Source of the DNA: a virus
Taxonomy: Duplodnaviria > Caudoviricetes
Reading direction: 5' to 3' (one strand)
Virus record (IMG/VR): IMGVR_UViG_3300037454_000475
Span: 1-64,000 of that record
DNA: 64,000 nucleotides
In this document: positions 3,482-52,468 of the stretch, in pieces
Position numbering within the stretch: position 1 is the stretch's first letter
How the letters are laid out: every line of letters begins with the position of its first letter
Notes under the pieces: generated by a model
The model's database searches: none
Told to the model about the DNA's origin: nothing
The model's input: the letters and a program-made list of their open reading frames with translations, nothing else
Program-made: the position numbers and the translations under genes

Positions 3482-4072
3482 TTACTCGGCGTCTTCCGAT
3501 TTCTTTCTACCTCTCCTTGTTGTGTTTTCGGTTTCAGCGTTGGTGTCATCACCAGCATCACCGGTACCTTGTTCACCTTGTTCGCCTTCGTCATTGGCTG
3601 GTTCGTTGATACCTTGGCCATCTGCAGTTTCTTCAACAACAGTACCGATACCTTCAGCACCTTGGCCACCATCAGGCTCGTTCTCTGCAGGGATTACAGG
3701 ATTCTCGTCAACAACGGCATCCGGATCCTTTGCAGTTTCCTTATTGTCATTGACGGTTTCCGGTTTCGTATCGGCTTTTTCTTCCACCTTCGGGGCAGCA
3801 ACTTTCGGAGCAGCCGGTTTTTCTTCTTTGTGTGTATCAACAAATGTATTGGCCATACGTTTGGCACGAGGATCATTCATGTTTCGATTGAGGTTGTCTT
3901 CGATATCGGCGATCATCTTATAGAAATCGGATATGGATTTATCTTCACCAAGACCACGTTTGATAACTTCATTTACAGCATCAATCTTTTCGAGGACACC
4001 ACGTTCGCTGACCTGCTGGCGCATAAAATCAGCATCCGGGGTTCCAGGGATAAAACGTGCAAAATTTACCAT
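3482..4072 (-). CDS. Hypothetical protein with acidic low-complexity C-terminus
   Basis: 196 aa ORF flanked by terminator hairpins. Confidence 0.75.
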   Translation of the reverse strand: MVNFARFIPGTPDADFMRQQVSERGVLEKIDAVNEVIKRGLGEDKSISDFYKMIADIEDNLNRNMNDPRAKRMANTFVDTHKEEKPAAPKVAAPKVEEKADTKPETVNDNKETAKDPDAVVDENPVIPAENEPDGGQGAEGIGTVVEETADGQGINEPANDEGEQGEQGTGDAGDDTNAETENTTRRGRKKSEDAE

Positions 4073-43534: not shown

Positions 43535-43573
43535 ATAAGAATCAATCAAATGTCTCCCAATATGTCAAAGAAC
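43535..43573 (-). promoter_or_regulatory. boxA-containing leader, copy 2
   Basis: 39 bp identical to 50909-50947; begins GTTCTTTGACA. Confidence 0.8.
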
Positions 43574-43610
43574 GTTGTTCTTTGTTGTTGGAACCTTGTT
43601 CCTTCAACAC

Positions 43611-43644
43611 CTATATATAATAAACACCGCTGATTTATTAACAA
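43611..43644 (-). promoter_or_regulatory. Internal promoter of RNA operon
   Basis: TTGTTAA...TTATATATAG phage motif. Confidence 0.75.
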
Positions 43645-48140: not shown

Positions 48141-48221
48141 AATGGAGCCGCTTTCGAGTGATCCCGGACACTACCCCGGCGGGCGCGGCATACCCATATG
48201 TGTTTGTGCGATTGTATCCTA

Positions 48222-48540
48222 TAAAAGGTGGGTGAGAACTACGCCCTCACCCGTGGCTGTGCTTCGGTGCCTAACTTTAGGCAGCGATAGCCATTTCAGT
48301 ACGTGCGCCAGTTATTGCGCGGACACCATCTCTTTTGTTCCTTCGGCCGCTGTCAAAACCAAACACCCCCATATGAGAAGGTTTATACGATACCTACAAA
48401 CGTTTGGGGACACCGTATGGCATCGATCCACCACCGATTTTTACGAAATCGGAAACGTCTTTAATTGGCGAAAGAGTGGAGGTGACGGGAGTCGAACCCG
48501 TGTCCAAACGGATTATCTAACAAAATACAAACGATTGTGC
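48222..48540 (-). ncRNA. ssrA: Circularly permuted (two-piece) tmRNA; tag (A)GARTEMAIAA
   Basis: Acceptor piece ending GGACACGGGTTCGACTCCCGTCACCTCCA (48477) precedes GGGGGTGTTTGGTTTTGACAGC (48370); G3:U70; tag ORF 48277-48309. Confidence 0.9.
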
Positions 48541-48544
48541 CATG

Positions 48545-48618
48545 CGGTGTTGAAGGGGCTCGAACCCTCGACCTCCGCCGTGACAGGGCGGCATTCTAAC
48601 CAGCTGAACTACAACACC
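48545..48618 (-). tRNA. tRNA-Asp(GTC)
   Basis: CCGCC-CT GTC AC-GGCGG. Confidence 0.95.
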
Positions 48619-49354: not shown

Positions 49355-49404
49355 CAACGTTTACCTGATTTACCGTCCTTTACGGCTTTACGTTTTCGTC
49401 TCAT
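49345..49404 (-). CDS. Candidate micro-ORF MRRKRKAVKDGKSGKRWLS
   Basis: Paralog of 49186-49236; runs 10 nt into tRNA-Lys. Confidence 0.45.
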   Translation of the reverse strand: MRRKRKAVKDGKSGKRWLS

Positions 49405-49463
49405 AGCTTAAATGTTTATTTGATTGTTGTTCGCCCTTTAATTAAAAACACCCTACGAACGTT

Positions 49464-49832
49464 GTACTCGGCAACCTCGGATATTGTGGAGGGCCCATCC
49501 ACGGTTTTGACCAGCTAAAGTTTGATGGTGCTTGGTATCCCAATCTCCACTTGCTCGCCTGCGGATGGCGGATGCCGCTGTGGCCCGGCAACTGGCAACG
49601 GAGTACCCATCCGATCAGGGCCGTGCTGTTCCTTGGCCAACACGGATACCATTTAGACCTCCAATAGTTATCGAAACCTGAAGTATCCACCTACCATCAG
49701 GGGAAGTTTGCAACCTTCCCGGGAATCCAGTTTCAACCTCCCGTCCTTTACACCACCTCGCGCATTTCACGGATCAGCCTTCTCCGGAGTTGCCTTCGCT
49801 CTCACGGCCGCGTGGTTCCACGGATTGGAGTA
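49464..49832 (-). ncRNA. Candidate ~370 nt structured RNA
   Basis: End pairing GGCAAC..CGGA/TCCG..GTTGCC; TGGTATCC/GGATACCA; TGGAGG/CCTCCA. Confidence 0.55.
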
Positions 49833-49841
49833 TTGTTTCTG

Positions 49842-50009
49842 TGATCTCGGTGGGAGTTGAACCCACATTACCATAATCGTTTGCTTTACCACTGCAATGG
49901 TGGGGCGACTAACACGCGTTGTCGCGCTGTCCTCCCCCAAACTTTCAGGTACTACCACTATATCCCAGTGTGAATCTGTTGCAGCATCATCTCTTTGGAG
50001 TACGAGACC
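49842..50009 (-). ncRNA. tRNA-scaffold RNA (~168 nt) with inserts in several arms
   Basis: GGTCTCG/CGAGATC acceptor, GTGGG-TTCAACT-CCCAC T arm. Confidence 0.7.
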
Positions 50010-50020
50010 TTTTAAATATG

Positions 50021-50156
50021 CACCAAGACGAGGATTCGAACCTCGGCCTCAATGTCCTCTCGGGCATTGTATTCTGTCCTCTTTCCATCGTGGCAACTCC
50101 GGCCGGCTGTACAACCAGCTTATTGGTCTTACCACGACTTCATCTAACTACCTTGA
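50021..50156 (-). ncRNA. tRNA-scaffold RNA with ~70 nt D-loop insert and GAGA-capped anticodon arm
   Basis: ATCAAGG/TCTTGGT acceptor, perfect T arm, GTCGTGGTAA/TTGCCACGAT insert helix. Confidence 0.72.
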
Positions 50157-50341
50157 TTGATTGATTATTTCCCTCACTCATCAACCGGTGGTGATTCGCG
50201 ACTCACCACCCGACCCTATTTGCCGGTTCAAACTCTACCGGTGTCGGCTGATTACGTTACGCGGGAGAAGCTACCTCCCTGGAAGGTACTCTACCTTCCC
50301 AAACAGAATTGTTTGTTATGAATGAGTTATTTCCTCAACTT

Positions 50342-50414
50342 GTGGATTGGTGGGATTCGATACCCACATCACGCGGTTGCATACGACCGGAATATTACTT
50401 ATACTTACAATCCA
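50342..50414 (-). ncRNA. Aberrant tRNA-like RNA (8-nt anticodon and T loops)
   Basis: TGGATTG/CAATCCA; GTGGG-TATCGAAT-CCCAC. Confidence 0.6.
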
Positions 50415-50720
50415 TCGGCCTCGAGATTACCATACGTTTCTCCTGTTGGCTGTGCACACCAACAACTCCCCTACGGACGCCATCCTCTGTACTCTGTTGA
50501 CTTTCGGTTTACTGCAGCACCTACATGGTCCAACGTTTCCGTGACTTTACGCGACTGGCTCTTGTGAGAAGACCTCGTTATTATCGGACGCTTTTGCATC
50601 GATTCTTTGTCCGATTGCCTCTTAACCTTGTGTTACGCCTGTGTTCCGGTGGCCGGAGTGGTATCTCCCAATCGAGCTTTTGTACCACTGCTAACACTGC
50701 TCTGAAGAGATTCAAACTTG

Positions 50721-50793
50721 AGCGAAGAATGGGACTCGAACCCACGATCTCGACCTTGGCAAGGTCATATTCTACCAACTGAACTACCTTCGC
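50721..50793 (-). tRNA. tRNA-Gly(GCC)
   Basis: TGACC-TT GCC AA-GGTCG. Confidence 0.95.
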
Positions 50794-50908: not shown

Positions 50909-50947
50909 ATAAGAATCAATCAAATGTCTCCCAATATGTCAAAGAAC
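50909..50947 (-). promoter_or_regulatory. boxA-containing leader, copy 1
   Basis: GTTCTTTGACATATTGGGAGACATTTGATTGATTCTTAT. Confidence 0.8.
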
Positions 50948-50992
50948 CCTTGTTTTATGTTGGTTGGAACGTTTTATCGTTCCTTTCAACGT

Positions 50993-51025
50993 CTATATAT
51001 AATCAACCTCCTGCGAAACTTAACA
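50993..51025 (-). promoter_or_regulatory. Promoter of RNA operon
   Basis: TGTTAA-N18-TATATATAG. Confidence 0.75.
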
Positions 51026-51091
51026 CTCTATCGAAACTTTTTTGAAACTTTTTTGTTTTTTGTTCATTTGCAAGTATTTATAATAGGTATT

Positions 51092-51158
51092 AAAAAAGGT
51101 CATCCGTTTTTGCGAATGACCTTCTTGTGTGGGGGTTATATTTCAAATTGTCATTCGC
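51092..51158 (-). terminator. Attenuator: terminator 51092-51123 and antiterminator strand 51150-51158
   Basis: 11-bp stem plus U tract; upstream GCGAATGAC perfectly complementary to the 5' arm GTCATTCGC. Confidence 0.75.
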
Positions 51159-51164
51159 CTTCTT

Positions 51165-51287
51165 CTATCCCCCTTGCTTGGCATCATAGCCGCAAAATCC
51201 TTCATTACCGAGTACAATGGCGGTATTCATGGCTGCTGGGCGGCTCCATGATTGTTTCAATGTCATTGTATGTAGGGATAAATTCAT
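51165..51287 (-). CDS. Candidate 40-aa leader peptide containing all 20 amino acids
   Basis: MNLSLHTMTLKQSWSRPAAMNTAIVLGNEGFCGYDAKQGG; 31 different sense codons; A-rich start. Confidence 0.7.
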   Translation of the reverse strand: MNLSLHTMTLKQSWSRPAAMNTAIVLGNEGFCGYDAKQGG

Positions 51288-51354
51288 CGAATGATTTTTA
51301 ATTCTTTCTAATATGGATAATAGGACAGGTTTTTTAAGTTTTTAACTTTTTTGC

Positions 51355-51390
51355 AAAAAAATAATGGAGACCATTGCTGATCCCCATTAT
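51355..51390 (-). terminator. Intrinsic terminator after OmpA gene
   Basis: ATAATGGGGA/TCTCCATTAT plus T tract. Confidence 0.8.
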
Positions 51391-51412: not shown

Positions 51413-52468
51413 TTATTCACGGGTGATCGTTGCGCACCTTGAAAGCTCAACAGTGTCATAGGCATCCAACTTCGTGGTAACCTGAATGTTGGTATACCCA
51501 TTCTGCTCAAGGATGGCTTTCACTGCGGCGGCACGGGCGTTAGCCAAATCGGAGTTGTAATTCTCGGTTCCGGTCTTCGTATCGGCGGATCCAACAATCA
51601 CGATGTTGGCGTTCTTGTCAACATTGGCCATAAAGATATCCAAACGCTGCATCTCCGTGGTAGTAATGGTTGAGCTATTCTTTGCGAAGGTAAGAAGTGT
51701 GTTGTTGGTGTTCACCTCAACAATCTTCTCAACAATCTTTTCGACAATAACGGTATCTCTCTCCACCTCACGGTTCATACATCTCATGCATTCATCGTAC
51801 ATGGTGTAAAGCTCCGAGTATTGCTGGTCGGTATACGTCTTATCGCAGATCACGAAGTTATGGGAACCGGTCTTATTTGACTTAAATCGATAAGCCACGC
51901 CGATGTTGGCCTGAAGATCCGCATGCTTTACCATTGGTTCGATGTGACGGGACTGGAGGATTTCGTGAGATACGACTTGAGGTGTAAACGTAATGTACCA
52001 AGCGCGTTCTTTACCTAAATTGAAATCAAATTCGAGGCCGGCGTTCAATGATATATCGTTGGGGTTACTTGAGTTGAACATATGATCCCATCCGATACCG
52101 GTTACGGTTTGAATTTCAAAAATCCTTGGTTGGCCTTTGTACCCGGCAAACAAATTCATTAGGTTGAACTTGACGTTTCCGTTCAAATTCGTTGCACTGA
52201 TGGCAAAACCGTCCTCGAAGTTAGGTCTCATGTATCCAACCAACGAAAACCCGGTGATAGGGGTAACGTTCTTGCCAAGTTCAAGACCGGCGTTCCAGTC
52301 CAAGGTATTGAACTCAAAATTATCGTAGTTGGAAACAGGGTTGTGAATGGCACCGCCATTGATGCCAACATACATGTTGGAAAAAACACCACCGCGTTCA
52401 ACGGTTTGAGCATTTGTGATTGTGAAAGCCATAAACAAGGCGATCATCAAAGAAATAATTTTCTTCAT
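51413..52468 (-). CDS. OmpA-family outer membrane protein (Bacteroidota type)
   Basis: Signal peptide, beta-barrel region with NLMNLF.GY, C-terminal GSAD..TG...YN..LA..RA. Confidence 0.88.
   Translation of the reverse strand: MKKIISLMIALFMAFTITNAQTVERGGVFSNMYVGINGGAIHNPVSNYDNFEFNTLDWNAGLELGKNVTPITGFSLVGYMRPNFEDGFAISATNLNGNVKFNLMNLFAGYKGQPRIFEIQTVTGIGWDHMFNSSNPNDISLNAGLEFDFNLGKERAWYITFTPQVVSHEILQSRHIEPMVKHADLQANIGVAYRFKSNKTGSHNFVICDKTYTDQQYSELYTMYDECMRCMNREVERDTVIVEKIVEKIVEVNTNNTLLTFAKNSSTITTTEMQRLDIFMANVDKNANIVIVGSADTKTGTENYNSDLANARAAAVKAILEQNGYTNIQVTTKLDAYDTVELSRCATITRE

Follow-up and report, generated by a model that had tools for sequence, protein, structure and literature searches.

In the enterobacterial leaders of amino-acid operons (trpL, hisL, pheL, thrL, leuL, and ilvL), one or a few regulatory codons are repeated in runs, and the genes under control encode biosynthetic enzymes. 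T-box RNAs bind the tRNA directly, need no ORF, and report its charging through the choice between a terminator and an antiterminator. The erm and cat leaders are uORFs which sense antibiotics, the erm leaders controlling translation. The uORF toiL of E. coli works through Rho. It is reported to sense ribosome-targeting antibiotics and to act on the topAI-yjhQ toxin-antitoxin transcript (PMC12121999).

A described precedent for the sensing of many amino acids by one leader is the uORF of whiB7 (wblC) in actinobacteria. This uORF is reported to be translated, the leader to choose between a terminator and an antiterminator, and stalling of the ribosome to lead to read-through (PMC10274678; Lee, Lee & Roe 2022, as cited in PMC10287673). 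The uORF of M. smegmatis encodes 19 of the 20 amino acids and whiB7 is induced by the perturbation of 18 of the 20 amino-acid pathways; removal of the single Trp codon abolishes the sensing of tryptophan, so that one codon suffices, and the cleavage of a tRNA by a toxin is also an inducer (PMC10274678; PMC10287673). This multi-amino-acid sensing, together with the induction by tRNA cleavage, makes pan-amino-acid sensing mechanistically credible and not unprecedented. A preliminary description of the locus presented here, made from its sequence alone, had known of no all-codon sensor of this kind, a statement that the whiB7 precedent overturns. A literature search returned no published description of a leader-peptide attenuator in front of a phage tRNA/tmRNA array. 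Such tRNA arrays of large phages are thought to offset the loss of host tRNAs or a mismatch in codon usage, and we know of essentially nothing on how they are regulated.

The locus lies in a window of 64,000 nucleotides, the whole stretch of DNA that was analyzed, taken from a 105,290-bp IMG/VR record of a large rumen-type phage, which was judged to be 58% complete. We read it, with a probability of roughly 0.6, as a ribosome-operated leader-peptide transcription attenuator at the head of a tRNA/tmRNA array. Its anatomy, its conservation, a coding signature and two alternative helices argue for this reading, in which the promoter is putative and the translation, the direction of the switch and the signal are predicted. 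An attenuator had already been proposed in the preliminary description; its architecture stands, comprising the ORF, the placement of the stop, both helices and a largely kept amino-acid completeness, whereas three parts of the proposal do not hold.

All features of the cassette are located on the minus strand. Directly upstream lies an OmpA-like gene (51413-52468), whose intrinsic terminator (51361-51390) was found in a terminator scan as a 13-bp stem followed by a T-run. A promoter-like box, GTTAA-N19-TATTAT (51317-51346), was identified by a motif match and would imply a 5′-UTR of about 20 nt. It is followed by an A-rich untranslated leader (51288-51316), which ends in ATCATTCG before the ATG and has no Shine-Dalgarno sequence. 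The leader ORF (51165-51287) consists of 40 sense codons and a TAG stop; the re-count confirmed that it encodes all 20 amino acids with 31 distinct codons. Its stop (51167-51165) is followed by AAGAAG and then, starting 6 nt past the stop, by region 2, GCGAATGAC (51150-51158), the 5′ strand of the candidate antiterminator. Region 2 is the exact complement of GTCATTCGC (region 3, 51120-51112), which sits in the 5′ arm of a U-tailed terminator. This complementarity had been pointed out in the preliminary description and is beyond chance, as shuffling the 105 nt upstream 200,000 times produced a perfect 9-mer complement 129 times (6e-4). A 29-nt spacer between region 2 and the terminator contains AUAACCCCC, and all 8 sequences compared share a loop motif, AUAACCC(C), which is located at 51131-51139 between region 2 and region 3. 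The intrinsic terminator (51092-51123) has an 11-bp stem, with its 5′ arm at 51123-51113 and its 3′ arm at 51106-51096, the hairpin thus spanning 51123-51096, and a T-run to 51092. Promoter-like box, A-rich leader, ORF, 9-mer and terminator form a cassette of about 200 nt. About 70 nt beyond the terminator lies the promoter-like box of the array, P1, with the sequence GTTAAG-N17-TTATATATAG (50993-51025), followed by a hairpin and a boxA-like leader (GTTCTTTGACAT..., 50909-50990) and by tRNA-Gly, the first tRNA of the array (50720-50793).

Operation of such an attenuator would start with the putative promoter, which is of the class of the array promoters and would give rise to a short A-rich mRNA with a 40-codon ORF translated by ribosomes. 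A leading ribosome that arrives at the end of the ORF in step with the RNA polymerase would sit on or next to region 2 (51158-51150). With region 2 masked, region 3 would pair with region 4 to form the terminator, and the transcript would end at 51092. A late ribosome, held up by slow decoding, tRNA shortage or general translation stress, would instead leave region 2 to pair with region 3; no terminator would then form, and the polymerase would pass P1 and the boxA-like leader and go on to transcribe the tRNAs and the tmRNA. The signal which delays the ribosome may be the general decoding speed, a shortage of any tRNA, or a peptide-specific arrest. Because P1 is located downstream of the terminator, read-through would only add to the transcription of the array, which would not depend on it; the arrangement would be comparable to that of tandem promoters of which the upstream one is regulated. 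This caveat had been raised in the preliminary description and was borne out, since P1 is conserved (L002-L004, L016, L017, and L021) and shares the GTTAA...TATATA class of the upstream box.

The layout of the cassette is that of the enterobacterial leaders, with a short ORF, a stop beside region 2, a 2:3 helix set against a 3:4 helix, and a U-tailed terminator. It differs from them in that the phage ORF has no codon runs, a 1:2 helix is unsupported, and no Rfam leader matches. With the whiB7 uORF it has in common the predicted translation of a uORF, the terminator/antiterminator layout and a near-complete amino-acid set. There is no sequence relationship between the two, however, and the whiB7 system belongs to an actinobacterial host, not a phage, and controls a transcription factor, not tRNAs. 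Furthermore, the whiB7 uORF is described as Ala-enriched and variable, whereas the phage peptide is conserved in its order, and at the phage locus the terminator is followed by a second promoter. The likeness to toiL and to the erm/cat leaders is that downstream expression is turned on when ribosomes are slowed, in a generic manner, while translating a short ORF, but none of these leaders is known to gate tRNA genes. A T-box would follow the same readout logic; the phage leader has an ORF and gave no T-box match. The kind of mechanism is known, and it is the phage tRNA/tmRNA context with an order-conserved, nearly complete peptide for which no description was found.

Relatives of the locus were collected in two ways. 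A search with the OmpA-like protein led to the syntenic metagenome contigs L002-L006 and L013-L015. A peptide profile search against 1.84 billion representatives, together with two word-index searches, led to 29 database peptides, which with the translations of the loci make up 32 distinct sequences that are 50-100% identical to the peptide of the window. The divergent DNA lineages are L016, L017-20, and L021-23. The leader peptide is a called gene in many assemblies. The cassette was found ahead of the array promoter in all 8 DNA lineages recovered. In seven of these (the window, L002, L003, L004, L013, L017, and L021) the first tRNA follows as well, with the array on the strand of the cassette; in L016 the array promoter follows the cassette and the contig ends before any tRNA. 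L016, L017, and L021 lack ompA and its terminator and have a different gene of 90-92 aa upstream, yet the cassette is followed by the same array promoter and boxA-like leader, which indicates that the cassette travels with the array and not with ompA. The gene for the OmpA-like peptidoglycan-associated protein is located directly before the cassette only in the clade of the window. OmpA homologues with 60-66% identity (L007, L009-L012) show another synteny and no cassette; they adjoin HSP70/YqeY or a methyltransferase on large phage-like contigs.

Other searches added no further relatives. A distant blastn search against GenBank phages gave tRNA-Gly as the sole match. IMG/VR searches with the OmpA protein, the 28-nt loop, the boxA-like leader, the 23-nt ORF block, a degenerate ORF pattern and the peptide profile returned no relatives, with the phage's own record possibly excluded. 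A loose region-2/terminator pattern occurred at at least 120 loci of IMG/VR, with the full motif in none of the matches listed. The metagenome DNA scan found only L003, which was already known, and the scan of genome contigs found no relatives.

The elements around the ORF are conserved to different degrees. The terminator of the OmpA-like gene is kept in L002-L005 and would shield the cassette from upstream transcription in the clade of the window. A box similar to the promoter-like box is found 27-29 nt before the ATG in L016, L017, and L021 and resembles both promoters of the tRNA array. On its two strands the window has 6 sites with the pattern GTTAA-N16-19-TATWWT, where 1.1 would be expected; five of the sites lie on the minus strand, and this pattern may represent the promoter class of the phage. 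It is unlike the TTTG/TAnnTTTG promoter type of Bacteroidota. The motif ATCATTC in the untranslated leader is invariant in the close relatives L002-L005 and in L013, is present in L017, and is different in L016 and L021. A core similar to a Shine-Dalgarno sequence was found in 8 of the 127 long ORFs of the phage, and their upstream regions are A-rich, so that an A-rich leader without such a sequence is the normal start context of this phage.

The array itself comprises 38 tRNAs and a permuted tmRNA between 50793 and 35152, as predicted by ARAGORN, with about 40 tRNA genes overall. The second half of the array is preceded by a copy of P1 at about 43610-43640, and no leader-ORF cassette accompanies this second array promoter (~43.6 kb), a point against the attenuator. 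The promoter-like box, a GGAAC/GTTCC hairpin and the boxA-like GTTCTTTGACAT leader are duplicated on the minus strand (50909-51025 and 43535-43640) and head both halves of the array, with an identical copy of the boxA-like leader at 43535-43573. This duplicated leader resembles rrn antitermination leaders. The duplication is kept in L002-L004, L017, and L021, and in L016 (1540-1790) the array promoter and hairpin are present in two tandem copies after the cassette, with a divergent leader. The permuted tmRNA is located within the array (48186-48566, minus strand; Rfam tmRNA_permuted, 63 bits), and the tag predicted by ARAGORN ends in AIAA; L002, L013, L017, and L018 have a tmRNA at the same place, with different tags. 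Between tRNA-Gly and tRNA-Lys lies a stretch of about 1.3 kb (49355-50719, minus strand) that is devoid of credible ORFs and in which no Rfam match exceeds the threshold; the only one, a weak tRNA-like match, is at 50021-50094 (21.5 bits). It probably holds unclassified structured RNAs. Rfam calls an additional tRNA at 39210-39283, which was missed by ARAGORN. In the most divergent relative, L021, the first tRNA of the array is a tRNA-Phe (3654-3728) to which ARAGORN assigned the unusual anticodon AAA.

Several features indicate that the leader ORF is coding. Of the six frames, only that of the leader ORF is fully open in all 8 DNA lineages. A 125-aa ORF on the opposite strand (50924-51301, plus strand), which is preferred by some gene callers, is closed in L003, L016, L017, and L021. 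Synonymous divergence among the close relatives is three to four times the non-synonymous divergence (pS 0.23-0.31 versus pN 0.07-0.10), and dN/dS is mostly 0.25-0.65, with 1.18 for one distant pair, L017 and L021. In codons 21-38 variation is confined to third positions (five sites), and the indels seen, a 3-nt deletion in L003 and an insertion of two codons in P0123, are in frame. The nucleotide identity of the ORF to L002/L003 is 86-88%, versus 77-80% for the adjoining ompA coding sequence. These patterns suggest that the leader ORF is very probably translated and that its product is under selection. The preliminary description had expected a poorly conserved peptide; this does not agree with the dN/dS values or with a C-terminal peptide motif that is nearly fixed across the relatives, both of which argue that the order of the peptide matters besides its composition. 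The order is more conserved than a pure codon sampler needs, which speaks against the attenuator.

The same observations bear on a second explanation, a stand-alone gene for a small protein of 40-45 aa which would act in trans, its position at the array being mere synteny and the region 2 helix tuning its own 3′ end. Purifying selection and the nearly fixed C-terminal motif in relatives of 50-85% identity are what such a gene would show, it has its own promoter-like box and terminator, and gene callers annotate a hypothetical protein. It gives no reason, however, for the retention of the region 2 nucleotides in three reading contexts at the stop, as described below. Moreover, P0127 has lost the core motif, yet its ORF, region 2 and terminator persist and its peptide still contains all 20 amino acids; the C-terminal tails vary freely in length and sequence; and no Pfam or PHROG family was recognized, as the profile search with the peptide gave nothing better than E = 0.17. 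We consider such a gene rather unlikely.

The nucleotides of region 2, GCG[A/G]ATGA[C/T], are kept in three reading contexts. Region 2 begins 6 nt after the stop in the window and L002-4 and 2 nt after it in L021; it contains the stop in L016 and L017 as well as, inferred from the peptide tails, in P0122, P0124, and P0129; and it is translated in a third frame, the stop following within a few nt, in P0123 and P0148, as implied by their tails. The prediction that the stop stays close to the antiterminator strand was thereby confirmed. A terminating ribosome would cover region 2 in every one of these contexts, and region 2 behaves like an RNA element rather than like part of the coding sequence.

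Both alternative helices are maintained. The antiterminator (regions 2:3) comprises 9 bp, and all 72 of its cells over the 8 sequences are paired; for the terminator, 98.9% of cells are. Six one-sided changes to G-U in the terminator fit only the RNA of this strand. One antiterminator pair is compensatory: A-U is replaced by G-C in L016 and by G-U in L021, with a matching adaptation of the terminator pair that competes at this position (U-G, C-G, U-A). As to the covarying stems foreseen in the preliminary description, both helices do stay paired with this one compensatory change, but the covariation is thin, because regions 2 and 3 are nearly invariant; for the antiterminator it was not significant in shuffle control (a), with 147 of 500. 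The frame-independent conservation of region 2 is a stronger argument than the covariation. The energies of the two helices are comparable, with −11 to −12.7 kcal/mol for the antiterminator versus −11 to −15 kcal/mol for the terminator, and in L017 the antiterminator is part of the unconstrained MFE structure. The equilibrium fold of the window favors the terminator state by about 12 kcal/mol, so that antitermination would have to be kinetic. A candidate anti-antiterminator, formed by the G-run at the end of the ORF and the C-run of the loop, appears in single-sequence MFE folds but was rejected as a conserved feature, since L016 and L017 do not have it and its 77% pairing over the relatives does not exceed that of slid controls. 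Visual inspection of candidate hairpins within the ORF showed them to be disrupted in the relatives.

A non-coding RNA switch, in which the reading frame would be incidental and the leader would act as a riboswitch, as a protein- or tRNA-binding leader, or as an sRNA released at the terminator, could account for the strong nucleotide conservation with an invariant 30-nt block among the close relatives and for the fold of the whole leader (z = −3.5), and the unexplained conserved AUAACCC loop also speaks for it. Such a switch is nevertheless highly improbable in view of a frame that is open with in-frame indels in every lineage, the excess of third-position changes and dN/dS values mostly below 1. 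There is no conserved helix within the ORF, and searches with Rfam for T-boxes, amino-acid leaders and riboswitches gave no match at the gathering score or even at E<=1.

Order conservation also raises an attenuator with a sequence-specific arrest peptide of the TnaC/SecM type, which would stall on one ligand or factor and not on tRNA supply. The conserved block (SW.R, IVLG.EGF.GYD) is located about 5-20 residues before the stop, in the range of the exit tunnel, yet P0127 and P0132 scramble this block and keep the switch. No known arrest motif was recognized, and purely synonymous change would be expected equally of any functional peptide. We regard an arrest peptide as improbable.

The presence of all 20 amino acids in the leader ORF was evaluated against chance. 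All 20 types occur in 1.3% of random ATG ORFs of 36-44 codons and in 0.37% of 40-aa windows of long ORFs, and at least 31 distinct codons are used in 21% of random ORFs of that size. As the 105-kb record contains 151 such small ORFs, about 2 complete ones are expected and 1 was seen, so that the frequency which the preliminary description had proposed to simulate does not exceed chance, and the property is not significant alone in a single genome. The reading that the locus is an ordinary intergenic ORF beside an ordinary terminator draws on this expectation of about two all-20 ORFs of such size per 105 kb. The conservation seen in about 12 lineages already contradicts it, as do the coding signature and the 9-mer complement (6e-4), and it retains next to no credibility.

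Across the relatives the completeness is largely, but not universally, kept. The claim that it would be conserved holds for 27 of the 32 distinct peptides and for 11 of the 12 deep lineages; it fails for the commonest variant, P0143, which is found on the most contigs (32) and lacks Cys, and for four others without one or two types, namely P0131 (Cys and Pro), P0136 (Cys), P0147 (Arg), and P0153 (Ile). The only Phe codon of the partial L006 is changed to Leu. The deep-lineage test used one cluster representative for each of the 12 lineages. If only the residues shared with the consensus are kept and the rest is drawn from the background, about 7 complete lineages are expected (P 6e-5 to 2e-4); if residues shared with another lineage within 0-3 alignment columns are also treated as inherited, 8.3-10 are expected (P 0.0005-0.015). 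The signal rests on few events. His and Asn are exchanged between positions 6 and 11 in P0125, in which the core Cys is lost and a Cys is regained in the tail; Cys and Gly are exchanged in P0127, with Arg and Val regained in the tail; and Cys and Asp are reordered in P0132. Completeness therefore appears to be kept more often than peptide conservation explains, yet it is dispensable in nature.

The four Leu codons of the leader ORF (TTA, CTA, TTG, CTC) do match four Leu tRNAs (taa, tag, caa, gag) as Watson-Crick cognates, as the preliminary description had noted, but L017 has only 2 and L021 only 3 of them, and the set is not a conserved feature. Likewise, the sole Arg codon of the ORF is CGC and the tRNAs with the anticodons cct and tct lie far off at 2744-2894, but the absence of AGA/AGG is not conserved, since AGA occurs in L002 and L004 and AGG in L021. 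A test of codon-to-array matching has no power, because the array reads almost every codon. ARAGORN found no tRNA-Ser in the 105-kb record, though the leader ORF has three Ser codons. Among the relatives, Ser tRNAs are present in L002 (cga) and L017 (gct).

A narrower form of the attenuator, in which the leader would be selected for its composition, so that shortage or cleavage of any tRNA would open the set of replacement tRNAs together with the tmRNA, is possible but doubtful. If it were true, the swaps in P0125 and P0127, which preserve the composition, would be its footprint, host anticodon nucleases would be one possible cause of the tRNA loss, and the phage would carry a feedback sensor of tRNA supply that covers all amino acids.

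At about 200 nt, the cassette family is a compact test bed in which codons for Cys, Arg, Ile or Phe are missing from natural variants. If the attenuator reading is correct, the range of leader-peptide attenuation, with its amino-acid and resistance genes, would come to include the tRNAs themselves and also Bacteroidota-type phages which do not use Shine-Dalgarno sequences. The expression of the array would then not be constitutive but a feedback response through a translation-sensing gate, and the tRNAs and the tmRNA of the phage would be linked to the contest with host defences that target tRNAs.
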